From the NCBI GenBank assembly GCA_951406725.2, contig OX597815.1, positions 180,296,001 through 180,360,000 of the forward strand: 64,000 nucleotides of DNA, given 5' to 3'. The translations under genes and the position numbers were made by a program. The DNA is from Octopus vulgaris. Lineage: Eukaryota. The notes beneath the pieces are model-generated. The model was not told the DNA's origin. It saw only the letters and a program-made list of their open reading frames with translations, and made no database searches. Positions 8,357-46,094 of the stretch are shown here, in pieces (the stretch's first letter is position 1; each line of letters starts with the position of its first letter).

Positions 8357-8963
8357 GTAGGAAAATAAAAGAAATTTTTCTACCAGTGGCTTAGCATGCA
8401 GAAAATAGTCAATAGACTATATATTATTCATATAAAATTAGTGTACATTTAAACACATAAGAGGTGCCCTGACAGGACACCCAACATGCTAGAAGGACTA
8501 GTTAAAATCCAAACCACAGTTAGGGGTAATTTCGAAGGGAATGAAAAATAAAAACATTTACCATATTTTGTTACCAGAGCATGGTTTCAAACTTTAATTA
8601 GCAAATAAAATAATTTGCTAGGTGAAGTTCTCATCAGCGGGTACGCCAACAGTTAAAATATAATTATGTTGGCAGTAAATAAAAATGTTGACATACTTCA
8701 AAATTACTAAAATCATTTTAAAAAAAATATTCAACGTAGGAAAAATTATAGAAATTTTTCTACCAGTGGCCTAGCATGCAGAAAATAGTCAATAGACTAT
8801 ATATTTGAAACCGTGGTCTTGTAACAAAATATGGCAAATGCTTTTATTTTTCATTCCTTTCGAAATTACCCCTAACCGTGGTTTGGATTTTGACTGGTCC
8901 TTCTAGCATGTTAGGTGTCCTGTCAGGGCACCTCTTATGTGTTTAAATGTACACTAATTTTCA
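8357..8963. mobile_element. Penelope-like pLTR arrangement (direct plus inverted repeats)
   Basis: Direct repeat ~8357-8424 / ~8737-8804; inverted arms ~8430-8590 / ~8805-8963; contains a hammerhead motif. Confidence 0.65.
8570..8644 (-). ncRNA. Minimal type-I hammerhead motif, C3-G8 core (decayed helix III)
   Basis: ccg CTGATGA gaactt..tagcaaat/atttgcta..aagttt GAAA ccatgc TC tgg. The sister arm at ~8807 reads GAAA ccgtgg TC, implying an ancestral palindrome CCGCGG. Confidence 0.65.
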
Positions 8964-8964
8964 T

Positions 8965-9560
8965 GATCATCATCATTATCGTTTAACATCCCCTTTCCAT
9001 GCTAGCATGGGTTGGACGATTTGACTGAGGTCTGGTAAACCAGATGGCGGCACCAGACTCCAATCTGATCTGGCAGAGTTTCTACAGCTGGATGCCCTTC
9101 CTAACGCCAACCACCCTGAGAGTGTAGTGGGTGCCTTTACGTGCCACCGGCACAAGGGCCATTCATGCAGTACTGGCAATGGTCACGCTCAAATGGTGCT
9201 TTTTATGTACCACCTGCACAGGAGCCAGTCCAGTGGCACTGGCAAAGACAACGACCTCGCTTGAATGTTTTTTCAACGTGCCACCAGCACAAGTGCTAGT
9301 AAGGCGATGCAGGTAACGATCACGCTCAGATGGTGTTTTTAACATGCCATCGGGGTGGAGGCCAGCTTATTGCTCTGGCATCGATCTCACTCGTATGGTA
9401 CTCTTAGCGCTTCACTAGCATGGATGCCAGTCATCGATTTTGATTTCGATTTCACTTGCCTCAACAGGTCTTCGCAAGCAGCATTTAGTGTCCAATGAAG
9501 GAGAGGCACGCATAAGTGGACTGGTTACACTCCTGGCATAGGCCACAGGTTATGATCCCA
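8965..9560 (-). mobile_element. 5'-truncated RTE LINE 3' UTR
   Basis: Matches 33130-33680, including ~60-bp internal repeats and the (gat)n tail. Similar tails occur at about 14618, 20328, 21145, 23185, 42058, 44655, 45173, 50203, 50717, 53007, 58308 and 59955. Confidence 0.85.
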
Positions 9561-9624
<64 letters not shown>

Positions 9625-9750
9625 ACAGAAAGGGAGGAATTTTGATTATCCCCAGGTGGTGAGTTGTAACATATATAAGAAATTAAAGAAGGAAAATGCA
9701 CACACTTTACGTAGTATTAATATAATTTTTAATATATCTTATATTGTGTT

Positions 9751-9783
9751 TGTCGACCGGTTTTGCTTTTGCTAATCATGACA
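9751..9783 (-). ncRNA. Minimal hammerhead-like motif, A3-U8 core variant
   Basis: tgtc ATGATTA gc aaaa gc AAAA ccgg TC gaca. Helix I is tgtc/gaca with a palindromic CCGG. GAAA>AAAA is explicable by CpG decay. Lies in a (TA)n-flanked fragment 9621-9958. Confidence 0.5.
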
Positions 9784-9969
9784 TTAAAATTTATTTAAAG
9801 ATGTATTTTCTTAAGAAATTTTTTTTGTCCATGTTGTGTGTGGAGTTTATGAATGAATGATTCAACAAGTAGAAAAATCTAAGGGGAGGTAATTGGTTAT
9901 CGTTATTATTGTGGACAGGGGAGATAATTGTTCATCTTTCGGTAGGGGGTGGGAGGAATATATATATAT

Positions 9970-10250
9970 ACCACTGTGATCACCGTGACCGACCAGGCCA
10001 TCAGATGTTGTTACACATCGCTGGTCACAATGCGCTTCGCATTGTTTTAGCCTTCAAATGACACCACCCTGCTGGCTAAGCGAGCAGGCCAACAGAAGAA
10101 AGAGTGAGAGAAAGTTGTGGCGAAAGAGTACAGCAGGGCCCGCCACCACCCCCTGCCGGAGCCTCGTGGAGCTTTAGGTGTTTTCGCTCAATAAACACTC
10201 ACAACGACCGTGAGTCCGCTGCCCTAACCACTAGGGCATTGCGCCCTCAC
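9970..10250 (-). mobile_element. tRNA-headed SINE (family C-related, internally deleted head)
   Basis: Head and core match 23520-23710; the tail differs. Confidence 0.75.
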
Positions 10251-10777
10251 ATATATATATACATACACAAAAATTCAAAAACTAGAGTAGTGGGGAGAAA
10301 TATGTACAGTGATGGGTATGTAATCGTGAATTAAAATATTTTAATAAGAAGTGAACTCATTAAAAATATAAATTAGCAACAGAGGCAGTATTAATGCTGA
10401 GAGTTAATACTGATCCTGACTGAAACATGCATGTTGTATCTTGTACCTTGGGAGGGTCATTTCACCAGTAATAATAAACACACACACTGGTTCAATATCA
10501 CTTCTTTAATACTATAAATTGGTTAAATATCTAACCAATTAACTAACCAATTGTTTGCTTAAAGTTTTGGTTAAACAATTAATCAGTTTCATTTTTGCAG
10601 GATACATACATACAGATGCACACACATACATACATATATACATATGCATACATACACATGCATGCATACATATACACATTCATACGTACATACATGCATA
10701 GGCACACACACTGACCCACACACATGTGCACAAACAAACAAATAGGAACACAGTGTAAATAACGGACAGAGTCAAGA

Positions 10778-10814
10778 CTATTGAAAAGGTTGCAAGACTC
10801 AACGAAAATTTTAG
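10778..10814 (+). ncRNA. Minimal hammerhead-like motif, U3-A8 core variant
   Basis: cta TTGAAAA g gttgc aagac tcaac GAAA at TT tag; same family as 19759-19795. Confidence 0.4.
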
Positions 10815-11894
10815 GAAAATAAAAATAAGAAATAAGTGGAAATTTTACCGGTAAATGTGTTACATAATAAGGCACAAAAAGAAAATGACTCTCCCCAGAC
10901 ACAACAGAATTAATCAGTTTTTTGTTTGTCAAAGTCCTTTCATTGTTATTCACAACCTCACCAATGACATACCCTCACTCTCCAAGGTCTGCCCGAAAAT
11001 TTGTCTTATATTTGTATGTATGTATGTATGCATGTGTGTATGTAGACGTGTAGTTGCTTACAAGAGAAAGGAAGGGTGAGAGGAAATGAAGAGCATATAT
11101 ATGCATGTGTACATGTATGTATGTGGTTGTGTGTGTGTGCACTTGTGTGCCTACCTGTGTGTGTATTTCTGAGCGTGTATGTGTGTGTGTGTGCATTGGC
11201 CATCCACGATCTGTTTAAGGGTTCAGCCAATGTTTTCAAGGTTAGTTCAGATCTGCTGAGATCTGCTTGTCATCCCATAAAGATTTACAGGTGTAGCTCC
11301 TTATGTGGAGAAGGAGAGAACAGGATGTGCATGTGTGTGCGTGTGTGTGTGTGTTCTCACATGTGTGTGCTTGTGTATATCTTTGTGTGTGTGTTTATGC
11401 GTGGGTGTGCACATGGATGTGTGTGTATGGCTGTGTGTTCTTGTGCTTTTGTGTATGTATGTGTTTTTGCATGTGTGTGATTGCATGTGGTTCTGTAATG
11501 GAATTGTTCATAATTACATGCATTAATCTGTATGGATTATCTCGTATCCTGCTGTCCTGAAACAAAATGTAATTATTGGTTTGATGTTCCCGGAAAAGAC
11601 AGAAAGGAGTTGTGTTGTTACATGCTTTAATCTTCTTCAGAAAGTTAGGCAGAAGAAAAAGGGTTAAAAAGAAAGAAAATGAGAGTAGTGGAAAAAAAAC
11701 ATTTTAGCATGTGTCAAATCATTTTGAAAATGGCTTGATGACTGTGAAGGTGCCTGGCTCAGTGGTAAGAGCATTGGGCTCACAATCATGAGGTAGTGAG
11801 TTCGATTCTCGGACCTGGCTGTGTGTTGTGTTCTGGAGCAAGATACTTCATTTCACGTTGCTCCAGTTAACTCAGCTGTAGATGATGATGATGA

Positions 11895-13200
11895 TGTGGA
11901 AAGAGGTGGTAGTTGTAGGGGTCCAAATCAGGAGAGTAAGGTGAGTGGTCTACCAATTTGAAGCCCAAGTCATGTATCTTCCTTAGAGATTCATGTGTTG
12001 TGTGTGCTGATACATTGTCATGCAAAAAGCAGGACACCACAGTCGAGCTTTCCATGGCGACTTTGCTTCAAAGCTTAATGCAGTTTGTCCCACAGAGACG
12101 TGTAGTATTTTGCATTGATGGTGTGACCCTTTGGCATGCTTTTTATGAGGAGTACTCTGTCTTTGTCCTAGAACACTGAAGCCAGAATCTTTCCAACTGA
12201 CTTCTGAGTCTAAAACGTCTTGGGACACAGTGAACTACCGTGGCACCAATCCACTGACTGCTACTTGGTCTGGGGATCATAATGATGAAGCCAAGTCTCA
12301 TCCATGGTGATTAAATGAGCCTTTAAATCAGCCTCTCCCACTGAAAACTGGCCCCAAATTGCCTTTGATGTCATCCCTCTGAAGCACTGCTGATCTGCAT
12401 TCTGGCATTTCAGCAGCCATTTTGAGGAAAGCTTTCTCATGTCCAGAATGTTGTGGATGATATGGCCAACATTTACGCAAGAAATTCCCAGGGTCTCACC
12501 TATGACTCTAGCAGAAATCCACTGGTTCTCGAGAATCATGATGTGCACAGCATCGGCTTTGTCCTCTGTGGTCGTGGAAGTTGGCCATCCTGACCAGGGT
12601 TCATCTGTGACCTCAAAGTGACTAGTATGAAACCTTGACACCCAGTTTTTCACTTTGGAGTAAGATGGGCAACCATTCTTCATGATTTCCTTTATCTTAC
12701 CTTGGATTCCTGCCACTCCTTTACTTTGCAAAAAAGAGGAATTTCATGACCACCCATGCTTCAATTTTACCAAAATCCACTGTCAGAGCTGCTATCATGC
12801 ATTAAATTTGCAAAAAAGAAAAATGTATATTGTATACCATTATGATCTTAAAGGCGGCGAGCTGGCAGAAACGTTAGCGTGCTGGGCGAAATGCTTAGCG
12901 GTATTTCGTCTGTCGTTACGTTCTGAGTTCAAATTCCGCCGAGGTCGACTTTGCCTTTCATCCTTTCGGGGTCGATAAATTAAATACCAGTTTCGCACTG
13001 GGGTCGATGTAATCGACTTAATCCCTTTGTCTGTCCTCGTTTGTCCCCTCTGTGTGTAGCCCCTTGTAGGCAATAAAGAAATATACCATTATGATCTTTT
13101 GCATATCTTCTCCTTAATAGTTCTCCCACCTCCACTGTAAAGGTAACAGCTCTACCCTTTCATGATACCCCGAAAGCCAGGAACTTTTCAGCACCCTCTC
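11895..13200 (-). mobile_element. Mariner transposon fossil (transposase pseudogene ~11895-12770; 5' TIR ~13173-13200)
   Basis: Peptides SYSKVKNWVSRF..DEPWSGWPTS, LITMDETWLHHYDP, FLHDNVSAHT and VDHSPYSPDLDPYNYHLFP are mariner motifs; stops and frameshifts present. TIR gagggtgctgaaaagttcctggcttt. Confidence 0.92.
12850..13081 (+). mobile_element. SINE family B inserted in the mariner 5' region
   Basis: 17-bp TSD tataccattatgatctt at 12833-12849 and 13082-13098. Confidence 0.92.
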
Positions 13201-13382
13201 ATAAATGCTAAAGAGTTAACTCATGTCTTTCCATATTGCTTTATTTCACTTTGTTTGTTCTTGTCTCTCTGCTCATCTTTTTCTCTCTCTTCACATACAA
13301 CACGTATGCATGTATACATGTGTGTGTAGAAATATGAAGCTTGATATATATATGTGTAGGTATATACGCAACACATACACAA

Positions 13383-13482
13383 NNNNNNNNNNNNNNNNNN
13401 NNNNNNNNNNNNNNNNNNNNNNNNNNNNNNNNNNNNNNNNNNNNNNNNNNNNNNNNNNNNNNNNNNNNNNNNNNNNNNNNNN
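13383..13482. other. Assembly gap (100 N)
   Basis: Run of n. Confidence 0.99.
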
Positions 13483-13690
13483 ATACATATATACGTTCAT
13501 ATATATGTGTGTGCATGTGTGTATAATATATATATATGTATATACACACACATACGTTCATATATATGTGTGTGCATGTGTGTATAATATATATATATGT
13601 ATATACACACACATACGTTCATATATATGTGTGTGCATGTGTGTATAATATATATATATGTATATACACACATACACACACACATATACA
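13483..13690. repeat. 61-bp minisatellite made of dinucleotide runs (~3 copies next to the gap)
   Basis: atacgttcatatatatgtgtgtgcatg.. recurs at 13491, 13552 and 13613. Confidence 0.85.
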
Positions 13691-17102: not shown

Positions 17103-18752
17103 GTATCCTCATCAACATCATCATCATCATCATCATCATCACCATCATCATTTAATGTCTGTTTTCCATGCTGGCATGGGTTGGATGGTTTGACAGGAAT
17201 TGAAAAGGCCAGGAGCTGCATTCTATTGCCTGTTTTGGTATGGTTTATACAGCTGGATGCCCTTTCTAACACCAACCACTTTATAGTGTACTGGGTGCTT
17301 TGTACATAGCACTAGCCCCAGTGCTTTTTACGTGACACCATCACTAGTGTTTTTTTATGTGGCACCAACACTGACAGGATCACCAAATACCTCGCAAGAG
17401 AAGAACATCTCAACTTGGTGTGAGGAGTAGTGTTGAGGGTGTGTGGATTTGTGCCATTTGAGAGATTTAAGGTAGAGAGGGGACAGAGAAAAGTACTTTA
17501 CTATAGAGCAGATACATGGGTGCCTCAGTTGGAAAACAAAAACCCTAAATTAAAGCCTCTGAGTAGTTGCTTGCCCTGATAGAAACAGCTGCTAAATCTT
17601 CCTTAAACTCCTATCAATTATGTGCAAGAATGAAAAATTCATTGAACAATATAAATCTTAAATACACTGGTTGCATAAACAAAGACAAGAGGGTCCTGGA
17701 AAAAATAATTGATCAGGGCTCACCTGAAGCTAAACAACAACTTGTGTATCTTTATAGCTAAAAAAAATTATCAATATACGATAATTGTTTTATATTTACT
17801 ATATGACACTCACCATCTTTCTATGTAAATTTAAATACCATACACTGGAGACAAAATAAAAGACTAAAAGGAACGGCTTATAAATTCGTTTATTGATTTA
17901 TGTTGGCGAAAGAGAATAAATAAAATTATTTTATTCAGACAACATTTGGACTTGGACAAATTTTAAACTACGAAAGCCCCAAGACAGAAAATAGATGAAA
18001 CATATAAAAGCCATAAAACAACTAGAAATGTGTGTGTGTGTACATAAATATTTATGTGTCCTTATATATTTATATATGCATAGATGTATACAGATATAAA
18101 TGCCTTATATCTATATATTTATGCATCTATACATTTACATATATATTAATCCATACCAGTGATTCTCACAATATGCTTTCTATGGCAAAGGACTGCATTC
18201 CTCTACCAAAAGGGAAAAAAACCCCAGAAAAGTGACTAATCGTTCATATGACAGGCAGTATCCTTCTACAAAAGTTTCATGTGGCTAATATATGGATCTC
18301 TTTCCGAGTTCTTTAATAGAAATTTCATGGCATAAAGAAAGGTTGAGATGAGTTAGCTCCATGCTTTGGTTTTAGAATTCAATCTTTTGTAATATGCAAA
18401 GATCACATGTTTTAAGCCACACTGCATTGACTTTATGACTTCCCCATGGCCCAGATGAAGACAATGGAGAGACTGTGCTGTAAATTTGTGTAAAAGTGGT
18501 TGGCTGTTCCCTCAACTTTCAGATTGGTTGACCAATACAGCAAAACCACTAAGCTTCACTCACTAATTTCATCAGTTCTGGACGAATTCACAGCTACTAA
18601 AGCAGCTGTTAGTACATTGCTGCTATCTGAGGAAGTGTAAGTCAGGCATACCAATATTTCATTTCATCTAGTTTACACACTCACCGATAAAATTTCCACT
18701 TATTTCTTATTTTTATTTTCCTAAAATTTTCGTTGCCTCTTGCAACCTTTTC

Positions 18753-19198
18753 TGAGCTGTGGCCATGCTGGGGCACCACCATTCGGTGTTGCTACATGAT
18801 TTTACTTCACGAATGTTTTTTAGCAATTGACATTTGGTGCATGAGAGAGTTTGATGCAGCTGCCCTTATCTGCACCTCCTGCCGTGAAGTTGGTTCATCT
18901 GGGACACCTGACAGGAAGAGGTCCAGCTTTATTTTGAAGACATCTGCATTCGGGAGGATATTGAAGAGCTGTGGACCTCTGAAGCCCAGGCTATCGCAGT
19001 ATCTTGTCCTACATCTTGATGGCAAATTTGGAGTCCTTGGCACTATGCAGTGGTGCCCAGTTCTAGTATTTGTGTAATTCTCAATGCCAAAGTTTGGGAC
19101 AAGTCCTTCCAGGATCTTCCAGATGTATATTATGGCATATATCTTTCTCGCCTATGCTCTAAGGAATAGAGTCTTAATCTCTTGAGTCTTGAATATGG
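18753..19198 (-). pseudogene. CR1/L2-group LINE 3' end
   Basis: RLKRLRLYSLEHRRERY..YIWKILEGLVPN..SLGFRGPQLFNILP..FKIKLDLFLSGVPDEP; tail ggtggtgccccagcatggccacagc. Confidence 0.8.
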
Positions 19199-19600: not shown

Positions 19601-19718
19601 ACTCAAAAAATCAGATTGCTAAGGAATGATGAAAAGCTTCCTAAGGCAAAGCAGCTCTGAGGAACCTGTTTCCATTTTGCATCAAACATTGCATTTTTTT
19701 AGCAGACATTTGAACATT

Positions 19719-19886
19719 AAATTTTCGTTATGTCTTGCAACCTTTTCAATAGTCAAGACTATTGAAAAGGTTGCAAGACGCAACGAAAATTTTAGGAAAA
19801 TAAAAATAAGAAATAAGTGGAAATTTTACTGGTGAGTGTGTTACATTATAAGGCACAAAAAGAAAATTACTCTCCCCAGACACAAC

Positions 19887-19888
<2 letters not shown>
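19719..19888. mobile_element. Penelope-like fragment with head-to-head inversion carrying the U3-A8 hammerhead-like motif (19759-19795, +)
   Basis: Palindrome centred on 19755-19756; cta TTGAAAA g gttgc aagac gcaac GAAA at TT tag. Family copies at 10770-10905(+) and 18670-18752(-). Confidence 0.6.
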
Positions 19889-19925
<37 letters not shown>

Positions 19926-19926
19926 A

Positions 19927-20290
19927 ACAATCGCAGCAAGGAAGGTGTTTATAAGCCATTTAAGAAACACACAAAATCCGTTAGATTCACTTCAACATTT
20001 AAATTTAATTTGCCAAAATATTTTCGTCACTTTGAGACCATGACCTGTTCACTGACAAAATTCTGTGCTGCACGTTCACTGACAAAATTCCGTGCAGCAC
20101 GGAATTTTGTCAGTGAACAGGTCATGGTCTCAAAGTGACGAAAATATTTTGGCAAATTAAATTTAAATGTTGAAGTGAATCTAACGGATTTTGTGTGTTT
20201 TTAAATGGCTTATAAACACTTTCCTTGCTGCAATTGTTTTCGTTCCAGCACACAATCTCAGATCAGGTCACTTGCTATGCAAGTACATCT
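19927..20290. mobile_element. Penelope-like palindromic fragment with two G3-C8 hammerhead-like motifs (20010-20058 -, 20107-20155 +)
   Basis: Near-perfect ~145-bp inverted arms flanked by (TA)n; ttgtca GTGAACA g gtcat ggtctcaaa gtgac GAAA atat TT tggcaa. Confidence 0.65.
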
Positions 20291-20292
20291 CC

Positions 20293-20333
<41 letters not shown>

Positions 20334-20720: not shown

Positions 20721-20756
<36 letters not shown>

Positions 20757-21958
20757 GAGTTCAGCAAAAATTTAGATTCAGATAAATATGGTACTTAAGT
20801 TGAGGTACCAGAATTTAGTATGGTATTATCCATACAATTCCAAAATAAGGTGATTAAAATCAAAATAAGCAACAAGTGTATCCAGAGGTAATACAGTACG
20901 ATCGCTTCATACAACTCCATTTAATTGAACAATGCAATCATTACATCAATTTAAATGCAGAGCAATCCTCAGCTGCATAAAGTCATGGAATTTAATTAAA
21001 TTAAAACAGATGGACACATTAGTATAATTTTACCGAAAATCTCCAAGAAGGTAAGGAGATAGACAAAGAACATGCTGCCTTCACTTCAGCTTAGAAGTTA
21101 AAGTGAAGGCAACATGTTCTTTGTCTATAGGGCAATATGACATGCTAGAGAAGACCTGTTGAGTCAAGTAACATCAAAATTAGTGCCACCTGATTGACTT
21201 CCATACCAGTGGCTTGTAAAATGCACCATCAGAACATGGTTGATGCCAGTGCCCTCTGACTGGCTCCCATGCTGGTGGTATGTAAAAAGCACCCAATATA
21301 CTCTCAGAGTGGTTGACATTAGGAGGGGTATCTAGCTGTAGAAGCCTTGCCAGATCAGATTGGAGCCTGGTGCAGCCTCCCAGCTTGCCAGTTCTCAGTT
21401 AAACTGTCCAACCCACGCCAGCATGGAAAGTGGGTGTTAAACGATGATGATGATGATATATATATATATATAATTCTTATTTTTAGAATTAGTATACCAT
21501 GTGCCTGCACATCATAAGAGGCAACAAATGTGACATGTATATTATATCATACCTTGATACTGTGTGGACTAAGATCCCCATTGACAGGCCACTGGTATTT
21601 ATAGAGTATTAAACACTTTAGGTATGCAAATTAGGGACTCCTTCATAGAGTAACTGCTGCATTTGTTGAGTATATAAACAGTTTGGCTGCTTGCTTCTCT
21701 GGAGACTGTCAGAATGATGTAGATGCTTCTGATGAGAACTCAATAAGGTTTGAAAATCAATTATGGTTGTTCATAATTTTTTTCAGTCTGTGGAGAAATG
21801 ACTAAAATTTGCCCTGTTTATAATTATACCATATGTTACATATGTATATTATTTATATGTATATATATATATTGTTCAAATTTACAGAAAACAAAAGATG
21901 AACACACGTGAGGAACAACAAGCAGGTGTATTTGTTTGATGCTTGGGAAGAATGAAGT

Positions 21959-21994
21959 CTTTGATGTTTTGAGTCTGTGCTCTTTGTCAGAAAG
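21959..21994 (-). ncRNA. Decayed minimal hammerhead motif
   Basis: cttt CTGACAA a gagcacagactc AAAA ca TC aaag. Restoring three CpG>CpA changes gives CTGACGA..GAAA cg TC with helix I cttt/aaag. Lies in a TA-flanked fragment ~21872-22048. Confidence 0.5.
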
Positions 21995-22280: not shown

Positions 22281-22349
22281 CAAATATGATATTAATATCT
22301 GTTTCTCAGATCTTACTACAAAATCAGAAAAACGAAATGAATATATTTG
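22281..22349 (-). CDS. Candidate 69-nt internal exon of an unidentified host gene
   Basis: Acceptor tattattttcattttttttAG and donor TTG|GTAAGT; open only in phase 0 (QIYSFRFSDFVVRSEKQILISYL); unique sequence. Confidence 0.3.
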
Positions 22350-23187: not shown

Positions 23188-25082
23188 CCATCCAAACATG
23201 GTTGATGCCAGCGTCCTCTGTGTCCCATGCTGGTGGCACGTAAAAAGTACCATCCAAACGTGGTTGATGCCAGCTCCCTCTGGCCCTTGTGCCGGTGGCA
23301 CATAAAAAGCACCCACTATACTCTCAGAGTGGTTGGCATTAGGAAGGGCATCCAGCTGTAGAAACTTTGCCAGATCAGACTGGATCCTGGTGCAGCTTCC
23401 TAGCTTCCCAGACACCCAGTTGAACCGTCCAACCCATGCCAGCATGGAAAACAGACGTTAAACAATGATGATGATGATGATATATGTATGTGTATGTGTG
23501 TGTTTGTGTATATAAATATGTGGAGGTGCAATGGCCCAGTGGTTGGGGCAGCAGACTTGCAGTCGTAGGATCGCGGTTTCGATTCCCATACCGGGCGTTG
23601 TGAGTGTTTATTGAGCAAAAACACCTAAAGCTCCACCTGGCTCTGACAGGGGGTGGTGGCAACTCCTGCTGTACTCTTTCACCACAACTTTCTCTCACTC
23701 TTTCTTCCTGTTTCTGTTGTACTTGTATTTTCAAAGGGGCCAGCCTTGTCACACTCTGTGACATGCTGAATCTCCCCGAGAACTACGTTAAGGGTACATG
23801 TGTCTGTGGAGTGCTTGGCCACTTGCACGTTAATTTCACAAGCAGGCTGTTCCATTGATTGGATCAACTGGAACCCTAATCCTCAGAACCGACGATGTGA
23901 TATTGTGTGTGTATATTTTCAAATATACTTCAGACTCTGTTTCTTTAGTTTTATAATATTCAAGCTTTGTTTTTGATACTAAATATTTTAAGATGTTTTT
24001 AATAAATTTTCCCATTGATTTTCAAAACTCACTCATTTTTGTCTTTTGTCATTTTCTTGTTTCAATCATTAGACTGTGGCCATGCTGGGGCACCATCTCG
24101 AGGAGCCTTCAGTCAAACAAATCAACCCCAGTACATTTTTTAAAGCCTGGTACTTATTCTACTGGTCTCTTCAACCAGACCACTAAGTAACAGGGACATA
24201 AACAAACCAACATCAGTTGCCCATTGGGTGGTAGTATGTGTGCGTGTGTGTGGGCAACAAATACAGACATAAAAGCACAACATATATAGGTGTGTGTGTG
24301 TGTGTGTGTATGTATAAATATATAACATGCTTCTTTTAGTTTCCACTTACTAAGTCCACTCACAAAGCTTTGGTTAACCTGATGCTATAGTAAAAGACAC
24401 TTGCCCTAGGTGTCATGCATGAAGTTGAACCTGGAACCTGGAACTGTGTGACTAGGAAACAAATTTCCTACTACACACCCATGCCTGCATGTATGATTAA
24501 CATTTTTCAGAATTTTATTTTGTCCTTTTTGAAGATTTATAATTTTAAGTATAAACAATTGCTAGGATTGCTAAATTTAAAAATAATCCAAGTCTGAAAT
24601 AATTTTTAGTGAGCAATAACCAAAGTTGAGATAACCTTCATTGTCTGAGGTACTTTCGCACATGCTGAGCAATATCCTCACCTCAGATAACCCTCATTAT
24701 CTATGGTACCAGCGCTGAAATAATGAAATAAATTTACAATCTTGGTACGACATATGGTGATAATATTGATAAATTATAGGAAAACAATTATGAGATAACT
24801 GTTTGAATCAGAAACTAGAATTGGATTTGATCATCATATAAATAATTCATCAGCCACACGACCTCTGCTTCTAACAGTGGGGTCATAAATGTTGTAGGAG
24901 TCAGAGAATATTGAAATGTTATTAGTGTGCACAAGAATGATCTCAAATATAATGATTATTACAATTAAACAAACCAGTGAGGAAACCTCTAAATGGTTGT
25001 CGAAGGTGTGAGATATAACAGCTAAATCTTCCTCAAATCGTGCCTTCTACTGTAAATAAGGAAAAAAGGAAAACATATTATA

Positions 25083-25379
25083 TAATGTAAAGTATAGAAA
25101 CCATCTTATCATGGCTAACCACATTGGGGAGGGGGTTGTTACTGTAGCTTTTTAGCCCCAAGAGATCTTCGTCTCTAGCTGGCTCTAAACACAATATCTG
25201 TGTCTTTGGAGTGTTTGCAAAGGGAGGCCATCCCTTCCTCGCAAGCCTGAGTGATACGCTCGAACTAGTTTCGGGATGTTTGTCCCTCGTCAACGGGCGG
25301 CAACTGTATAAAGCTACAGTAACAACCCCCTCCCCAATGTGGTTAGCCATGATAAGATGGCTTCTATACTTTACATTAT
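25083..25379. mobile_element. Penelope-like fragment with ~69-bp inverted arms
   Basis: 25083-25151 vs 25311-25379 form a near-perfect inverted repeat; the loop contains a hammerhead motif. Confidence 0.7.
25257..25299 (-). ncRNA. Minimal type-I hammerhead motif, U3.G8 core
   Basis: cgcccg TTGACGA ggga caaaca tccc GAAA ctag TT cgagcg. Helix I pairs at 5 of 6 positions, helix II has 4 bp, and helix III is the palindromic CTAG. Confidence 0.7.
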
Positions 25380-25999
25380 TGAGCGATTACTGTTTCAATC
25401 TCATTCTGAGATTTAATTATGCATATTATATAATGTAATCTTAAATACCTCTACAAAGATGTCATGGATGGATTGTCTTTTATCATTAATCTATTTGAAC
25501 CTGAGTGTTTTCTTAATGCAGGGCTTCAGCAGCATCAGTGCCCATTCGGGAGCAATCATTGGAATCGTCTCCAAGCTGGCCCCACTCTCTTTCCCATCCA
25601 TTTCATAACAAACAACAGAAAAGCATTAATTTTGTATGATGCGTAATTTGTTTTTGACAGCAGTTTCAATGAGGTAAAACATCTTCATTTATGTAAGTAC
25701 AAAATTAACTCACATAATTAATTTAAATACGATGGCTTATCCATCACATCAGAAGAAAAAGATTTTAAATGTGCGCACGCGCACACACGCACATTACATA
25801 TTCTTTTACTCTTTTACTTGTTCCAGCCATGCTGGAGCACAGCCTTTAGTCAAGCAAATCGACCCCGGGACTTATTCTTTGTAAGCCTAGTACTTATTCT
25901 ATCGGTCTGTTTTGCTGAACTGCTAAGTTACGGGGACATAAACACACCAGCTTTGGTTGTCAAGCAATGTTGGGGGGACAAACAGATACACAAACACAT

Positions 26000-26047
<48 letters not shown>

Positions 26048-28015
26048 GGCTTCTTTCAGTTTCCATCTACTAAATGCACTCAATAAGCTTTGGTTGGCCC
26101 AAGGCTATAGTAGAAGACACTTGCCCAAGGTGCCACTCAGTGGGACTGAATCCGGAACTATGTGGTTGGTAAGCAAGCTACTTACCACACAGCCACTCCT
26201 ATGCCCATATATGTATGTATAAACCTGTTTACAAAAAATTTCTTCTAAAAAATTTTTCTTGTTAGGGATATAATATCCGAGCAGGCACCAGTTTTGTGCT
26301 TTTACCAATTGAGGACGCTTGATATCATGCATGTGCTTATGTACTAATAATTGTTGGTTAGTTTGACCATTCTTAGTACTTTTCACTTCCGAAAATTCAG
26401 TTGTCCCTATAGTGACCCCATTCTTTTCGATATAAGAGAAATAATTAATAAGAAAATTACTATTTTTAAATCTCACAGCTAGAGATATTCAGCAACAGTA
26501 CTTTGGAGTAAAGATTGTTTGCCAACATAACATGGCAGTCCTGGTTTAGGATGAATGTTGCTGTAATTTAGCCCCAGGAGGCATCGTCTCTAGCTGGCTA
26601 TACAACGTGATCTGTGCTAGGGACATGTATAAAGCACCATCCGAACATGACCAATGCCAGTGTCACCTGGCTGGCTCCTGTGCTGGTGGAACACAATAAG
26701 CACCATGTGCCTTGTGCCTAGAGTAGAAAGTTGTTGCTGTTGTTTAACCCTGTTCAGTCCTGGTACAGTGGATCTATGATTTAAGAGGTACATAGGGTAG
26801 TGTAACCTAAAGGTACATGGCTTAGTGGTTTAGGTATTTGGCTCATGATTATCAGGTCATTGGTTCAATTCCTGGCAGTGCCTTGAATCCCTGAGCGAGA
26901 CACCTTATTTCATGTTGCTCCAATCCACTCAGCTGGCAGAAACAAGTTGCACCTGTGTTTCAAAAAGGGCCAGCCTTGTCACACTCTTGTGTCACCCTGA
27001 ATCTCCTTGAGAACTATGTTAAGGGTATGCATGTCTGTGGAGCGCTCAGTCACTTGCATGTTAATTTCACGAGCAGGCTGTACCATTGACCAAATCAACT
27101 GGAACTCTGGAACTGAAGGAGTGCCAGTTTTCTTATTTTATATAAGTATTTATGATGTGATTTGAGGGAGATACAGCTGTTATTTCTGGCAGCTGAAAGC
27201 TCTCTCTCTTTCGCTTATATTGCTACTGTTATTTATGGTGTTCTGGAAATTTCAGCTCTGTTGTTTTTCTTTAAACCATATTTTACTGATTCTAACTTAT
27301 TTATAGTCAGTGTTTTTGTTTATTTGTGGGGTTTTTTTTTTTATATTTTGTTTTCTGCTGACATGGTTGCTGTTGTTGCTGTTCTTGTTCCTGTTGTTGT
27401 ATAATACGATCTCTTACATCTTAATCATTCTAAATTAACGAACAAATTTAAAAATATATAAATATTTGGCATTTGATAAACCAAATTAATTGAATTACTT
27501 TGTAAGCAACAAACAATATAAACAAGTAAATAAATAATGCAATAAAAAGTAATAAAAATTATATGCAAAACAAATAAAAAAAATTAAATTAGACGCTGCA
27601 TTTGTTTGCTGGGATTTTTTTGTTTTGCTTATTATTATTTTTTTTTTGTTGCTTATGTTAATGATTTTGTGACTTAAAGCATATTTTTTATTAGATTTAT
27701 CAGAGTTTAGGATTTTAAATACATTTAGGCAACATGTAGTTTAATACATGAAGACCGAAGATTCGTAATACATGGAAAGTCAGGAAACATGGAAAGAAAA
27801 TGAGGAAAAGCTTGTTCTAAAGCACATTCCGGCTATCAAATGGTTTTCTGTTAGGCTTACGACTAATTGTAATGGAATTAATTTTATGAATTAGTAAAAT
27901 TTACTTTTATTAACAAATTGCACATTCTACTTCCTTTTCTACCTCCACCATCGGTACTTCGTTTTCTCCCGTTATAATTGTAACATAATTATAACACTAG
28001 TAATAAATATAATTA

Positions 28016-28460: not shown

Positions 28461-30262
28461 ATAACTTTAGATGGTCGATTATGGAAGACATTCAAGGAAG
28501 CCTGTTTTAAATGGGGACTCATCGATACAGACAATTATTATGACAGTATGCTTGAAAAAGCATCTCTCTGTTGATCTCCGTCGAAGCTTTGTCATCTATT
28601 TGCCATTATGTTGCTTTTCTGCAACTTGGTTAACACACCTTCATTGTGGAATAAATACAGGGATCATATGTGCTACGATATATGGCTTCAATCCTGTCAG
28701 GCTACCGAAAATTCCACCACTTCTTTTACTCCCTCTATGTATAATGCAGGTCTTATTCATTCGGAGGAATTGGCTGTGGCAATTGGAGGCCAAAGTTTGG
28801 AGGCATACTGCCTTCCTTCTCCGGATCGAAACCAAATGCAAACCTTTAATCGACTTATCCTTAAAGAAACATGCTACGATAAAACCAAACTTCAAAAATA
28901 TGTAGCTGTCAACGAGCCTCTCCTTAATCAAGATCAAAAATACGTTTACAAATCCGTTTCATAGCAATAAAGGTGGGGTCATCTTCATAGATGCACCTGG
29001 AGGGACAGGAAAAACTTTTTTGTTTAACCTTATTCTTTCTAATATAAGACAAAATGGTGACATTGCACATGCTGTTGCCTCCTCCGGTATAGCTGCAACT
29101 TGATTAGAAGGTGGGTGGACAGCACACTCGACTTTCAAGATACCACTGAATATTGTTCACCAAGAAAACACTATTTGCAATATTTCACATTCTTCTGACG
29201 AAGCTGTACTGCTGAAAAAATGTAAATTAATTGTTTGGGATGAAGTGGCCATGTCCCATAAAACCACTTTTCAGGCACTAGACGCCACAATGAAAGATCT
29301 CAGGTCAAACGAGAATGTTTTTAGAGGGGCCATTCTTCTTCTCACAGGTGACTTCAGACAGACACTTCCCGTCGTACCAAATGGATCACCTGCTGATGAA
29401 GTGAATGTCTGCGTAAAAAATTCCTCTTTTTGGCCTTCTGTCGAGGTGCATAAACTGACAATTAATATGCGATCTCTGTTACAAACTGGGCTTCCCTCTT
29501 TGCCATTTTCTTCTCAACTCCTCCACATTGGCAATGGTCAACTAGAGTCCGGTGATAGTGGAAACATCGATACTTCTACAATTGGCCACTCTGTTCCACG
29601 TTCCATGATCTCTGCTCTTCTGTGTATCCTAATTTATCGACTGACTTCATGAAAACTGATTGGCTTTGTGAGAGACCTTTTCTTGTGCCCACAAATGCTG
29701 CAGTTAAGCTTATCAATCACGAGTTAGTCATTTGGCCTCCATTCAACTCTGTTACAAGTCAGTTGACACTTTTACTGACTTTAATCAAGCTACCAACTTC
29801 CTGACGGAGTTTCTCAACTCTGAGGATCCCCCCGGATTACTTCCTCATGAGTTGTATTCAAAAACCAGAGCTCCCATCATCATTTTATGTAATTTAAACC
29901 CACCCTTTCATTGTAATGGAATGCAACTGGTGGTCAAACAACTTATGAATCTTGTGACTGAGGTGGAAATCATCACAAGACCTGGGCGAAATGAAACTGT
30001 TTATATTCCCAAAATTTCATCCATTCCTTCTGACTGCCCCTGAAAAGGTTGCAATTCTCTAGGAAGGTGAGTTTTGCCTTGACCATCAACAAATCTCAAG
30101 GTCAATCTCTTAAAGTTGTTGGTTTAGGTCTTTGTACCCACTGTTTTTCACATGGCCAGTTCCAGAGTTGGCTGTTCCAGAGTTGGTGATCCCGATGATC
30201 TTTTTATTTATGCTCCTAACAATAAAACAAAAAACATTGTATATAAATATGCTCTTCAATAA
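28461..30262 (+). pseudogene. Helitron RepHel PIF1-family helicase, 5'-truncated and disrupted
   Basis: TFKEACFKWGLI, FIDAPGGTGKTFL (Walker A), AVASSGIAAT, TAHSTFKIP, LIVWDE (Walker B), GDFRQTLPVV, CNLNPP..CNG, FALTINKSQGQSL, TKNIVY; several stops and frameshifts. Confidence 0.95.
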
Positions 30263-32659: not shown

Positions 32660-33680
32660 ACTAGCAGCTATTCAGGGCAAAGTTCAGAGAGCTCTGCTGG
32701 TGACAAAGGGCCTCTTGCTCAGAATAAAAGGTAGACTGTATGACACATGTGTACGAACAGCCATGCTACATGGCAGTGAAACATGGGCTGTGACTGCTGA
32801 GGACATGCGTAAGCTCGCAAGGAATGAAGTCAGTATGCTCTGATGGATGTGTAATGTCAGTGTGCATACTCAACAGAGTGTAAGTACCTTGAGAGAAATG
32901 TTGGACCTAAGAAGCATCAGTTGTGGTGTGCAAAAAAGACGACTGCGCTGGTATGGTCATGTGGCGAGAATGGATGAGGATAGCTGTGTGAAAAAGTGAC
33001 ACACCCTAGGACCTGGGATGAAGCGTGAAGCACGACCTTTGAACATTAGACCTCACCGAGGCAATGACTAGTGACTGAGACCTTTGGAAATATGCTGTGC
33101 TTGAGAAGACCCGGCAAGCCAAGTGAAACCATAACCCATGGCCAATGCCAGGGGTGTAACCAGCCCACTTATGCATACCTTTCCTTTATTGGACACTAAA
33201 CTCTGCTTGCGAAGACCTGTTGAGGCAAGTGAAATCAAAATCAAATTCGATGACTGGCATCTGTGCTAGAGTGCTAAGAGCATGATCCGAGCATGATCGT
33301 TGCCAGAGCAGCTGACTGGCTTCTGTGCCGGTGGCATGTAAAAAGCACCATTCGAGCCCCACCTTACTGGCACGTGAAAAAACATTTGAGTGAGGTCATT
33401 GCCAGTGCTGCTGGACTGGCTCCTGTGCAGGTGGCACATATAAAGCACCATTTGAGCATGGCCGTTGCCAGTACCGCCTGACTGGCCCTCATGCTGGTGG
33501 CACATAAAAGCACCCACTACACTCTCGGAGTGGTTGGCGTTAGGAAGGGCATCCAGCTGTAGAAACTCTGCCAGATCAAGATTGGAGCCTGGTGCAGCTA
33601 TCTGGTTCGCCAGCTCTCAGTCAAATCGTCCAATCCATGCTAGCATGGAAAGCGGACGTTAAACGATGATGATGATGATG
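32660..33680 (+). mobile_element. RTE-clade LINE, 5'-truncated (ORF C-terminus, 3' UTR and (GAT)n tail)
   Basis: KGRLYDTCVRTAMLHGSETWAVT...ML*WMCNVS...RRLRWYGHVARMDE; UTR with gcacgtaaaaagcacc repeats. Confidence 0.92.
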
Positions 33681-34063: not shown

Positions 34064-34112
34064 TTGTCAAAATATTTTCGTCGCTTTGAGACCGCGACCT
34101 GTTCACTGACAA
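34064..34112 (-). ncRNA. Minimal hammerhead-like motif, G3-C8 core variant (best-preserved copy)
   Basis: ttgtca GTGAACA g gtcgc ggtctcaaa gcgac GAAA atat TT tgacaa. Helix I is a perfect 6 bp, helix II 5 bp, helix III the palindromic ATAT. Confidence 0.65.
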
Positions 34113-40446: not shown

Positions 40447-40479
<33 letters not shown>

Positions 40480-41446: not shown

Positions 41447-41503
<57 letters not shown>

Positions 41504-43109
41504 TATATACAACGGGCTTCTTTCAGTTTCTGTCTACCAAATCCACTCACAAGGCTTTGGTCAGCCTGAGGCTATAGTAGAAGTAACTCACCCAAGGTGC
41601 CATGCAGTGGGACTGAACCTGGAACCATGTGGTTGGTAAGCAAGCTACTTACCACACAGCCACTCCTGAGCCTATGTGTGTGTGTATCTATATTTGTCAC
41701 CACCACCACTTGGCAACCGGCGTTGGTGTGTTTATGTCCCCATAACTTAGCAGTTCACCAAAAGTAACCAATAGTATAAGTACCAGGCTTGAACGACAAG
41801 AAGTCCTGCGGTTGATTCATTTAACTAAAAGACTCCCTTAAGATGGTGCCCCAGCATGGCCATAGTCAAACGGCTGAGACAAGTAAAAGGTAAGCACACA
41901 GCTGATATATATCTCAGTATGATCCATGTCATGCTCAGAACTCTCTCAGACGGAGATCAAGGTATTGTCAATGTCATATTCTCTATTTCTGTAATGGTTC
42001 CATCCCATTAGGATGTGAGGATGTGTTGCAGGTTGTGGGAAAGGGAAGAAAACCTCCTCATCATCATCATCGTTTAATGTCCGCTTTCCATGCTAGCATG
42101 GGTTGGATGATTGACTGAGGGCTTGCGAACCAGATGGCTGCACCAGGCTCCAATCTTGATCTGGCATGGTTTCTACAGCTTGATGCCCTTCCTAATGCCA
42201 ACCACTCCGAGAGTGTAGTGGGCGCTTTTTATGTGCCACCGGCACGGGGGCCAGTCAGGCGGTACTGGCAATGACCTCGCTCGAATCTTTTTACACATGC
42301 TACTGATACAGGTGCCAGTAAGGTGACATTGGTAACGATCATGCTTGAATGGTGCCCTTTTATGTGCCACCGGCATGGAAGCCAGTTGGCTGCTCTGGCA
42401 ATGGTCATGCTCGGATGGTGCTCTTGGTACCCTACTAGCACGGGGCACAAGTACCAGTAAGGCGAAACCTGTAGCGATCATACGTATATATATGTGTATA
42501 TACTCACAAATGTATGTATATATAGAGAGAAATAAAATGAGACAGACAGAGAAGGGGAGACATAGATACACTCATTCATGCTCACATGTACGCACACACA
42601 CACACAACTACATAGATGAGGAATCAAAGCCAAGTTTACGTAAATGTGCTTGTGAAAATACACATCAATAAGTCAATTAGATGAGTTATTTTGTGGGAAC
42701 ATTATGGAAAATATACATAGATATTTTTATGCTTTTGTGGTAATGGAATAATTTACATTGTTGAGTTAAATGTGTGTAAGCAGATAAATGGCTGTTAGTA
42801 AACAGAAATGTCAAATAAACGTACGTGTATTTAAAATGGTAGAAATTATTCTATCAAGGCTAGACCAAAGCTAACATCTAACTGGGAGAGAGATAATGCA
42901 TTGAGATATAGAAATAATGGTTTATGTATGATTGATGCCTGATTGAAAACCAGACAAAAGCAGAGAGACAGACTCGTCTGGTGACAAGTAAATGTGCCAA
43001 GTGAACAAAAATAGTTTTTGTTAATATATTCTAAAACAATAGTTCAACTGAATGCTGGTTTCTGATTGGCTAAAAATTGCTTCCCACCCAAATGGTTCTG
43101 GGTACTGTT

Positions 43110-43480
43110 TTCTTTCTCTGACAGTCAGTGGCCGACATCACTTTTCAAATTGTCAATGAATCCATTTTCACCTGATTCGGTTCCCCAGAGTCTGTCTGTG
43201 TTGACGATTCTTGGCAATTATTGCCAAATAGTTGTGGAATCATCATAAAATAAGTTCCAAAAATACATTAGGATCAATTTAATTATTTTCTTTCTTAACA
43301 AAACTTCGTTTTGTACCTACACCTCGGAAATCAATAATTCAAAAGACTTTTTCTTTTGCTCCTTTCACATGTATTTTCTTACAATGGTCTCGCGTTTGAG
43401 ACCATGGGTGGGGAAGAAATCACATTGTCACTCACATTCAGAATTCAACATCAGTCTTTGAAAGGAATAACCATGTTTTA
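43110..43480 (+). pseudogene. Possible Ty3/Gypsy integrase remnant
   Basis: VADITFQIVNESIFT*FGSPESVCVDDSWQL resembles IF.RFG.PE.IVSD...QF; HVFSYNGLAFET resembles HP.SNGLAER. Confidence 0.4.
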
Positions 43481-43871
43481 TAATACACATGGGAACCTCA
43501 AAAGGCTAAATTTAGGCAATTTATTTATAACATTTCTCCTACCAGAATTTAATTATTGGCTTAAATAAAGGCAATCAAAAGTGAAAATAGAGAGTAAATT
43601 GATTTAATTCCTCACAGTTTACCTGTCTTTATTAGTTCGCACAATTGTTGCCAAGTAGTTGGGAAAAATGTCAGTTAGTAAGGTTATCTGCAAGAAAAGC
43701 CAGCAAATAACCTTAGCTCTTAGGATTAGTAGAAATGAAAGCAAAAGAAGGACTAAATTCTCATCAGAACAGACCAATATTTTGTGATAATCAACATGAA
43801 GAAGGAAGATAATAGAGCAACTAAAAGTCCATTCACATCATCAACTGTCAATTAGAGATCAACATGATTAA

Positions 43872-44343
43872 CCCTTTCATTACCAACCTGGCTGAAACCG
43901 GTTCGGGCTCTGAGTACAAATATCTTGTTTTCATAAGTTTTGAATCAAAATCTTCCACCAAACCTTAGTCACAATTTATGTTCCTAACACTAGCTGAATG
44001 ATAACTAAGTTATTTTACTAAATTCTTTATAATATTTAAAGTAATTGAAAGAAACACAGAACATCTCAAAATAAATATGGTAAAAAAGGGTTTAAAATAT
44101 ATAATAGAGAAACAATTCTTAATCCTTTTGATACCAACCGGGCTGAAACTGGCTCTAGCTCTGAATATGGATATCTTGTTTTCATAAGTTTTGAATTAAA
44201 ATCTTCTACCAAACCTTAGTCACAATTTATGTTCCTAACACTAGCTGAATGATAACTAAGTTATTTTACTAAATTCTTTGTTATATTTAAAATCAATTGA
44301 AAGAAACATAGAGCATCTCAAAATAAATACAGCAACGAAAGGG
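43872..44343. mobile_element. Two adjacent piggyBac-type MITEs (43872-44090, 44123-44343; family 2)
   Basis: TTAA-flanked, TIR ccctttcgttac-like, near-identical bodies. Confidence 0.85.
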
Positions 44344-45106
44344 TTAAGGCTCTTCTATCCAAAAGTTTGTTCAATGATGCTAAAGTGCATGAAGCTACCT
44401 GGAAGCTATGTGGTGTATATTAAAGGAGCATCATGTCTAAACATTGAAAAGTACAATGAACATAATATATCCCTTGTCATCTAGTCTGTCTCTCATTATC
44501 ATCATAACATCCACTTTTCCATATTTGCATGGGTCTGATGGAGAAAGGAAGCATAAAAGATGGTTGAATTTAGCCTGAACACCCCATATATTTCTCTTTG
44601 CTTCTGTTGTTTTCTTTTGTGTTCATGGCTTGCTGGGGCATAGCTTGAAGAATATCATCATCATCATCATTATTTAGCGTCCGCTTTCCATGCTAGCGTG
44701 GGTTGGACGGTTCAACTGCAGTCTGGGAAGCCAGAAGGCTGCACCAGGCCCAGTCTGATCTGGCAATGTTTCTACGGCTGGATGTCCTTCCTAATGCCAA
44801 CCACTCCGTGAGTGTAGTGGGTGCTTTTTACGTGCCACCGGCACAGGTGCCAGATGGGGCTGGCAAATGGCCATGGTCGGATGGTGCATTTTATCTGGTT
44901 GAATAAATAGACCCAAGCATTTATTTTGTGTTTTTAAAGCCTGATACTCATTTTATTGAGTCCTTTTGCTGAACCACTGGGTTACAGGGACATAAACACA
45001 CCAACACTGGTGGTCCAGCAGTGGTGCGGGACAAACACACACACATGCATAGATATTGTATCATCCATCTATCTATCCATCCTTCCATTTACTTTTCTAT
45101 CTATCC

Positions 45107-45139
<33 letters not shown>

Positions 45140-45172
45140 CTTTTCTTTCTATCTATCTATCTATTCATATAT

Positions 45173-45605
45173 ATTGGCACGTAAAAGCACCATCTGTTCG
45201 TGTTCGTTGCCAGCCTTGGCTGGCCCCCATGCCAGTGACACGTAAAAGCACCGTCCGTTTGTGGCCGTTTGCCAGCTCTGTCTGGCCCCGTGTCGGTGGC
45301 ACGTAAAAGCACCATCCGTTCATGTCCGTTGCCAGCATCGCCTGGCCCCGTGCCGGTGACACGTAAAAGCACCATCCGTTCGTGGCCGTTGTACCAGCTC
45401 TGTCTGGCACCTGTGCAGGTGGCACGTAAAAAACACCCACTACACTCGCGGAGTGGTTGGCGTTAGGAAGGGCATCCAGCCGTAGAAACACTGCCAAATC
45501 TGACTGGGCCTGATGAAGCCTTCTGGCTTCACAGACCCCAGTTAAACCGTCCAACCCATGCTAGCATGGAAAACGGACGCTAAATGATGATGATGATGAT
45601 GATGA
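45173..45605 (+). mobile_element. RTE 3' UTR with four ~60-bp tandem units
   Basis: cacgtaaaagcaccatccgttcgtggccgttgccagc.. at ~60-bp period; (gat)n tail. Confidence 0.9.
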
Positions 45606-45617
45606 TATATATATATA

Positions 45618-46012
45618 GGCGTAGGAGTGGCTGTGTGGTAAGTAGCTTGTTTACCAACCACATGGTTCTGGGTTCAGTCCCACTGCGTGGCACCTTGGGC
45701 AAGTGTCTTCTACTATAGCCTCGGGCCAACCAAAGCCTTGTGAGTGGATTTGGTAGACGGAAACTGAAAGAAGCTCGTCGTATATATGTATATAAATATA
45801 TGTGTGTATGTTTGTGTATCTTTGTTTGTCCCCCCCAACATCGCTTGACAACTGATGCTGGTGTGTTTACGTCCCCGTAACTTAGTGGTTCGGCAAAAAA
45901 AGACCGATAGAATAAGTACTAGGCTTACAAAGAATAAGTCCTGGGGTCGATTTGCTCGACTAAAGGCGGTGCTCCAGCATGGCCACAGTCACATGACTGA
46001 AACAAGTAAAAA
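45618..46012 (+). mobile_element. SINE family A (well-preserved reference copy)
   Basis: ggcgtaggagtggctgtgtggtaagtagc..gggttcagtcccactgcgtggcaccttgggcaagtg..gctccagcatggccacagtc..gactgaaacaagtaaaa. Confidence 0.92.
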
Positions 46013-46048
46013 CAAAATGCTTTATTTAAAAGCAGCAGAAGTATAACA

Positions 46049-46094
46049 AAAACTGTTACTCGGAGTTTCACGTTCCTGTTCGTCGGACAGTTTT
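46049..46094 (-). ncRNA. Minimal type-I hammerhead motif (C3-G8, C at position 4)
   Basis: aaaactgt CCGACGA aca ggaa cgt GAAA ctccgag TA acagtttt. Helix I is a perfect 8 bp and the cleavage triplet is GUA. An inverted partial copy lies at ~46255-46305 across (TA)n. Confidence 0.65.

Follow-up and report, generated by a model that had tools for sequence, protein, structure and literature searches.

Hammerhead motifs in the window

The 64,000-nucleotide (nt) stretch of Octopus vulgaris DNA analyzed here (GenBank assembly GCA_951406725.2, contig OX597815.1, positions 180,296,001 to 180,360,000), referred to as the window, contains short repeats that carry minimal hammerhead-ribozyme motifs, in which the pairing of core bases 3 and 8 was followed. 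The C3-G8 pair is known from the full-length crystal structure of 2006 and is supported by swap mutants. In two repeat families of the window, designated C and D, it reads U3-A8 and G3-C8, respectively. All 10 core boxes proposed in a first-pass annotation of the sequence were found at their positions, with unequal quality, and are given with the associated repeats in Table 1. BLAST self-comparison of the window detected no mutual similarity between the motif families, in agreement with their description as unrelated.

Table 1. Hammerhead motifs, their repeats, and neighboring elements (window coordinates)
Feature	Positions	Strand	Basis and details
Family D minimal hammerhead, G3-C8 core	20106..20156	+	Strict scan; helices I and II restored by the majority letters of the reads; box 20113-20119, extra G 20120, helix II 5 bp, GAAA 20140-20143, helix I 7 bp, AAUAUU palindrome in helix III; cut predicted to follow U17 (20149)
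Family D hammerhead, inverted arm of the same insertion as the 20113 copy	20009..20059	-	G3 at 20052; strict scan
Family D independent copy	34064..34112	-	G3 at 34106, U17 at 34070; ~90% identical
Family D element body, about 210 bp	20093..20300	+	5' edge lies 20 nt ahead of G3 and recurs in many copies
Family C minimal hammerhead, U3-A8 core	19759..19795	+	Strict scan; box 19762-19768, extra G, helix II 5 bp, helix III AAUU, U17 19792, helix I 3 bp
Second full copy of family C	10778..10814	+	U3 10781, U17 10811; strict scan
Family C inverted, truncated arm	19719..19760	-	Box 19749; hairpin with the 19762 copy
Family C partial copy	18675..18752	-	Lacks start of box
Family A hammerhead, canonical C3-G8	8570..8646	-	C3 at 8637; 42-nt helix II; palindrome broken
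Family A array	8344..8961		Head-to-tail partial repeat, period 379 bp, plus inverted copy 8804-8961 (+)
Family A second locus, inverted pair	3391..3786		Minus-strand arm keeps GAAA-palindrome-UC at 3555-3543
Motif B, A3-U8 core, single copy	9751..9783	-	Found only with A12 allowed; G12 -> A, box at 9779, helix II 2 bp, helix III ACCGGU, C17 9755, helix I 4 bp
Motif F, U3.G8 core	25257..25299	-	U3 25293; mismatch-tolerant scan; helix II 4 bp, helix III ACUAGU, U17 25263, one helix I mismatch, after 2 bp
Motif G, C3-G8 with U4C	46049..46094	-	C3 46086, A17 46057; helix II 2 bp, no G10.1-C11.1, helix I 8 bp, helix III palindrome ACUCCGAGU with one unpaired center base
Site E	21729..21765	+	Canonical box, 5-bp helix II, GAAA; no helix I
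Helitron-type helicase remnant, broken	28471-30043	+	PIF1 E 5e-39 and Pif1 2B domain (Pfam)
Mariner transposase remnant	12264-12743	-	HTH_48, E 2e-4 (Pfam)

Motif scans and chance levels

The scan with bases 3 and 8 left free, as the first-pass annotation had recommended, was run on the window with a strict descriptor modelled on the published minimal-hammerhead consensus (N3/N8 free, G10.1-C11.1, helix II of at least 4 bp, helix I of at least 3 bp, palindromic helix III, and G12), and the chance level was taken from block-wise dinucleotide shuffles of the window. Five sites were found versus 0 in 100 shuffles, two of them with U3-A8 (10781 and 19762, plus strand) and three with G3-C8 (20052 and 34106, minus strand, and 20113, plus strand), and these five sites are above chance. 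The layout said to be shared by all motifs was present at the strict sites, although motifs B, F, and G deviate from it and site E (21729) lacks helix I.

Permitting A12 gave four sites versus a shuffle mean of 0.10 and brought in motif B (9779, minus strand, A3-U8), and dropping the G10.1-C11.1 requirement gave four sites versus a mean of 0.15 and brought in motif G (46086, minus strand, C3-G8 with U4C). A loose descriptor matched eight real sites versus a shuffle mean of 1.15, with three additional matches treated as chance, and a mismatch-tolerant scan, the sole one to catch motif F (25293, minus strand), gave nine sites, four of them chance-like, versus a mean of 1.4 in 20 shuffles. The canonical box with helix II and GAAA occurred twice (shuffle mean, 0.34; two sites were reached in 4 of 100 shuffles). 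Chance was taken to explain the matches of the loose scans at 22337, 22359, 29716, 33064, 34743, 48714, and 55619, as well as a look-alike near 43865.

Mere resemblance arising in AT-rich palindromic repeats, such as the ends of miniature inverted-repeat transposable elements or short interspersed nuclear elements (SINEs), with the 3-8 pairing picked by eye, would agree with the lack of any hammerhead among 127 Rfam matches at E ≤ 1, which were microsatellite-driven or otherwise unrelated, with the 25 box-helix II-GAAA sites found versus a shuffle mean of 10, with the passage of only two independent families through the strict descriptor, and with the missing protein link. This explanation is very improbable overall and unlikely for families C and D, given the 0 strict matches in 100 shuffles, the inverted-partner anatomy, the read-majority letters that restore the helices, and the agreement of base 9.1, G10.1-C11.1, and the palindrome with published Penelope motifs, which is not forced by 3-8 pairing.

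Pairing of bases 3 and 8

Family D (G3/C8), family C (U3/A8), and motif B (A3/U8) depart from the CUGANGA consensus and retain pairing. The reported joint change of bases 3 and 8 was seen in the four of four families caught by the three tighter descriptors, all Watson-Crick paired, versus 32 of 115 loose shuffle matches (p about 0.006; two of the three descriptors were relaxed post hoc, after the motifs were seen), but the strict descriptor alone gave two of two families with p about 0.08. Family-level covariation through all four Watson-Crick forms, which had also been claimed, was not supported, A3-U8 being represented by one copy with G12A and U3.G8 by one copy. The constancy of G5, A6, and A9 was present but is built into the selection of the motifs, and an extra purine after A9 (base 9.1) was clear in two families, not in three as proposed.

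G12, A13, A14, A15.1-U16.1, and H17 were present in A, C, D, F, and G, and motif B has A12. G10.1-C11.1 was present in C, D, and B, motif F has G-C without base 9.1, and the pair was absent in G and A. Base 17 was never the Watson-Crick partner of base 3 in the seven motifs, with G3/U17, U3/U17, A3/C17, and C3/A17 among the combinations; a G3-C8 variant is stated to work better with G17 than with C17, as data not shown (PMC3884650). Base 17 may co-adapt with base 3 to avoid Watson-Crick pairing, which is an idea taken from few families and not a result.

Families C and D in public reads

Four of 24 listed public runs were aligned at 80% likeness to positions 19640-20275, covering C and D only, namely three contig runs (labels A, B, and C; two probably DNA and one of unknown kind) and the RNA read run X22 (label E, 6% read). 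Unique flank depth in the three contig runs was 55, 51, and 3, versus 0.71, 1.0, and 0.15 million in the bin of the D box and 0.27-4.1 million in the two C bins, a read depth ratio of ~10^4-fold that does not equal copy number. C and D are very abundant families common to three organism labels.

Among the 40 of 219 variant rows listed, none fell on positions 3 and 8 (19762, 19767, 20113, 20118, 20052, and 20047), and hence no reversion of C or D to CTGANGA, expected if the variants were decay, was present there. The lowest top share among these rows was about 26% in some run; the other 179 presumably lie below that share. Run X5 had zero G>C changes at ≥5% anywhere, and therefore G3->C in the right arm and C8->G in the left arm are excluded at 5% in this run. 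U3-A8 and G3-C8 appear to be family-level states, not single-copy decay. In the RNA run X22, C and D were covered in both mate directions with no end pile-up at the predicted cut sites, a result that is uninformative on cleavage or strand.

In family D, Watson-Crick pairing in helices II and I is restored by the letters that dominate the reads at 20124, 20125, and 20136 (84-95%) and at 20152 (64-76%), and the 34106 copy carries these majority letters in both helices. The A-U of helix II in the 20113 copy versus G-C was rejected as covariation, as CpG decay on both strands accounts for the change. G12, which lies in a CpG, was kept in 96-98% of the DNA depth, and G12A reached 2-3.5% in the contig runs and 26% in the RNA reads of X22. 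Survival of uncut molecules was rejected as the cause of the latter share, since the neighboring changes at 20126, 20129, and 20241 were raised as much, so that species or subfamily differences suffice. In family C, the 37 nt of the motif contained none of the variant rows listed, and the following 73 nt had them at 9 positions (Fisher p 0.02).

Loose ends before 20093 were found in 62, 85, and 73 contigs of the three runs, with flank agreement of 0.43-0.45 and unrelated, AT-rich flanks, and behind 20272 a continuation was common to the family D contigs; the 3' end of the body runs into (TA)n. Rather than a set of randomly truncated pieces of a long element, family D seems to be a short non-autonomous unit. 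Its whole hairpin, with the 20052 and 20113 arms, occupies 19926-20238. [quoted passage not shown]

The partial family C copy is located within the 3' tail of a remnant at 18640-19151 (minus strand), which we take to be LINE-like. Consensi of the loose ends before 19757 in the three runs resemble this tail, which hints at repeated insertion there or at a composite element. At 10766-10805 (plus strand), bases 5' of the family C helix I can pair with loop II or among themselves, as a possible pseudoknot or competing fold, and a donor-like splice word is present downstream of the family C hammerheads (10850-10857 and 19830-19838, plus strand).

Predicted folding and cleavage

The monomer minimum-energy folds of the D copies at 20113 and 34106 and of the C copy at 19762 have the two-helix hammerhead layout. 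The dimer hammerhead was the predicted minimum in one of seven motifs, motif B, where it equals the cofold minimum at -15.1 kcal/mol, and it was below two monomer hammerheads in five of seven; for D it was about equal to two monomers. All four 3-8 pairs can reportedly cleave in engineered ribozymes, as Przybilski and Hammann are said to have found in 2007.

Minimal Penelope hammerheads are described as cleaving slowly as dimers through a palindromic helix III (PMC4209133). For the 3-8 pair, Watson-Crick geometry matters more than base identity; the double mutation C3G/G8C partly rescues the Penelope (PAc) hammerhead (PMC11167929). In a type III construct, G-C was the only rescuing swap (PMC9901934), which favors D and counts against B.

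In the mechanism suggested by these likenesses, tandem source copies would be transcribed, two motifs would pair through their palindromes to form helix III between them (AAUAUU in D, AAUU in C, ACCGGU in B, ACUAGU in F, and ACUCCGAGU in G), and the RNA would be cut after base 17, at 20149|20150 in D and at 19792|19793 in C. A Penelope reverse transcriptase (RT)-endonuclease encoded elsewhere would then insert new copies of the fragment into AT-rich DNA. Truncation, CpG decay, G12A, or sequestration within long hairpins has likely inactivated most of the copies found here. Inverted partners on opposite strands would bury the motif in a long hairpin, and activity would therefore matter only in tandem source copies.

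The motifs may instead descend from Penelope hammerheads and be catalytically dead or irrelevant, the swapped pairs having been fixed in founders and then amplified, with an RT that needs only the downstream RNA and a structure that persists as a protein-binding or template-switch element. PAc hammerhead mutants had no effect on in vitro insertion and no RNA sequencing ends were reported at the cut site (PMC11167929), Naiads amplify without canonical hammerheads (PMC8557442), the C and D dimer folds are weak, and high copy number makes any founder letter seem conserved. Such an account is nonetheless unlikely. A dead core has no reason for 3-8 pairing, yet all four families caught were Watson-Crick paired there, C-G to G-C takes two transversions, G12 of D was kept in nearly all of the DNA depth despite its CpG, and the C motif had fewer high-share variants than its flank among the rows listed (0/37 versus 9/73).

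Repeat anatomy and probable Penelope affiliation

An inverted partner adjoined 6 of the 11 loci, compared with 10% for random positions (p 0.0004), which together with the partial tandem of family A (period 379 bp) matches the Penelope arrangement of partial tandems and inverted 5'-truncated copies (PMC8557442). Opposite-strand hammerhead pairs 100-700 bp apart have been reported (PMC4209133). Insertion of PAc needs RNA of about the first 172 nt of the open reading frame (ORF), starting at hammerhead stem II (PMC11167929), a requirement that may fit the 90-180 nt tails found here. No same-strand tandem pair of full motifs, as in retrozymes without long terminal repeats (non-LTR retrozymes), was present among the window self-BLAST matches. 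Of the proposed ribozyme-bearing Penelope-like system, the repeat anatomy was seen, but no link to RT or GIY-YIG was found in the window frames scanned or by peptide search.

Motifs outside families C and D

The family A copy at 8637 is a decayed copy. Half-copies at 8807 and 3555 retain GAAA-palindrome-UC, with the palindrome intact if G.U is allowed, and the inverted copy at 8804-8961 begins at the GAAA half of the hammerhead. Splice-like words (donor, branch, and acceptor) were noted 3' of the family A hammerheads at 8480-8565 (minus strand) and 8830-8910 (plus strand); introns are known in Penelope repeats.

Motif B sits in a ~345-bp insertion flanked by (TA)n runs and had no relatives in the window by self-BLAST. 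It is predicted to be inactive as it stands, because G12A costs about 10^5-10^6-fold in rate (PMC2553840), and it would probably represent one more family, of which it is a decayed copy. Motif F is flanked by inverted arms at 25082-25154 and 25307-25379, and motif G has an inverted half-copy at 46250-46307 (plus strand). Site E is doubtful, being decayed or a chance match.

The full original proposal, that at least six families each have a different active 3-8 pair as consensus, including A3-U8 and U3.G8, remains doubtful. Motif B does have a helix I of 4 bp without mismatch, together with G10.1-C11.1, a palindrome of 6 bp, and a dimer that is the cofold minimum, its G12A is a CpG change that also occurs in D, and U3.G8 is present in one published row (PMC4209133). 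Against this, B and F are single full copies, and the read test covered C and D. B further lacks G12 with the loss in rate given above, only the G-C swap rescued in the type III construct, a single transition separates U3 of motif F from C3, helix I is missing at site E, and the loose descriptor yields 1.15 chance matches per window, a class that includes the A3-U8-like match at 33064.

Comparison with known hammerheads

The minimal hammerheads of PMC4209133 share with the families here the type I order, a palindromic minimal helix III, a short helix I, G10.1-C11.1, an extra base that separates 9 from 10.1, a U17 in many cases, truncated copies that are mostly solo, neighboring pairs on opposite strands, and many unrelated families per genome. 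About 1,300 U3-A8 minimal hammerheads are given there for S. mansoni, and the 56 rows of its Fig. S3 comprise 53 C-G, 2 U-A, 1 U.G, 0 G-C, and 0 A-U pairs. The box UUGAAAA of family C equals the S. mansoni(4) row of that figure, and its helix III AAUU with U17 equals the C. gigas row. Unlike the Penelope-like elements of that study, no RT-endonuclease ORF was found in the window frames scanned.

Natural U3-A8 covariation as in C and a U4C viroid variant as in motif G were described by Perreault et al. (2011; PMC3088659), section 8 of which names only U3-A8 at the 3-8 pair. The engineered C3G/G8C ribozymes (PMC11167929 and PMC9901934) have the G3-C8 pair of family D, with cleavage partly restored; they are laboratory double mutants, whereas D carries the swap naturally, at very high depth and under three organism labels. 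Non-LTR retrozymes (PMC7229834; bioRxiv 10.64898/2026.07.22.740005) are non-coding units of 170-400 nt with type I hammerheads, to be compared with the 379-bp period of family A, and are proposed to be non-autonomous derivatives of pseudo-LTRs. They have canonical hammerheads, true tandem arrays, and circular RNA, whereas minimal motifs in solo or inverted copies are found here.

Natural G3-C8 or A3-U8 was not found in the literature searched, of which supplementary alignments outside its scope could hold some; this includes the portions covered of PMC8495972, PMC6765202, PMC7229834, PMC6155905, PMC7151607, PMC13481778, PMC13282606, and bioRxiv 10.64898/2026.07.22.740005. U3-A8, base 9.1, and an example of U3.G8 are already contained in PMC4209133.

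Neighboring repeats

The GC content of the window is 30-44% in 2-kb bins, and microsatellites and short repeats crowd it. A frameshifted coding remnant at 53918-55361 (minus strand) has a cysteine/histidine knuckle at its C terminus and the look of a restriction-like endonuclease; the Pfam scan gave no meaningful match for it, and presumably it is a HERO/R2-type non-LTR element. Much of the window consists of very abundant SINE-like families that have a (GAT)n end or contain (AT)n internally, e.g., at 4210-4560, 25826-26220, and 45394-45830. A ~380-bp insertion at 20755-21140 adjoins (TA)n and has a 70-nt hairpin at its end (21059-21128), where no hammerhead was found, and an N-filled assembly gap is located at about 13380-13485 inside a microsatellite stretch.

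Discussion

Taken as a whole, the window probably contains short high-copy repeats, likely non-coding Penelope-like derivatives with minimal type I hammerheads, of which at least two families appear to have, in most of their copies, a 3-8 core that is swapped yet paired (U3-A8 and G3-C8) and are predicted to be able to cut RNA. U3-A8 and base 9.1 had been described before; what is added is a natural G3-C8 family of high abundance, along with a well-formed A3-U8 relic without G12. That all four forms occur is possible, not established.

Several observations weigh against this interpretation. The dimer hammerhead is not the cofold minimum for D (-25.2 versus -30.2 and -18.4 versus -27.0), and for C it reaches -8.6 versus a minimum of -16.4 and is worse than two monomers, while the longer context of the C copy at 10781 prefers an alternative fold. 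Covariation among the three D copies was not above shuffles (173/500). Alignment at 80% likeness favors the reference letter, and G>C and C>G sites, unplaced, were counted in X1 (2+2), X2 (1+1), and X22 (1+2); because of these and the 179 of 219 rows outside the listed ones, a minority canonical C3-G8 subfamily among the reads is possible. C and D have G at 9.1, where the consensus of PMC4209133 has H and G is found in 1 of 56 rows. The (TA)n link is modest, as (TA)n occurs within 200 nt of 6 of the 14 sites against a background of 18%. Pfam found no RT or GIY-YIG in 81 window frames (66 picked from 161 near-site frames), peptide searches with frames over D and C matched no protein, which is weak evidence given the short queries, and pattern scans gave 0 matches for D in metagenome, prokaryote, and viral contigs and for C in metagenome contigs. 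The Penelope identity is therefore drawn from the repeat anatomy.

More tentatively, a radiation of Penelope-derived elements within one animal lineage might have occurred, in which active hammerheads sampled C-G, U-A, G-C, and A-U as family states, with base 17 possibly co-adapting. In that case, CUGANGA or YUGANRA descriptors would overlook ribozyme copies numbering tens of thousands per genome, and natural evolution would have crossed double-transversion valleys in the catalytic core.

The G3-C8 family reveals neither a new ribozyme class nor a new type of element. As a natural, massively amplified family, it provides evolutionary support for the purine-pyrimidine flip, natural covariation of the 3-8 pair in print being limited, in the literature searched, to U3-A8, and it offers a ready assay substrate. 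As the first-pass annotation had anticipated, searches based on CUGANGA would miss the U3-A8 and G3-C8 cores, and genome-wide hammerhead counts and Penelope annotation built on them miss whole families.

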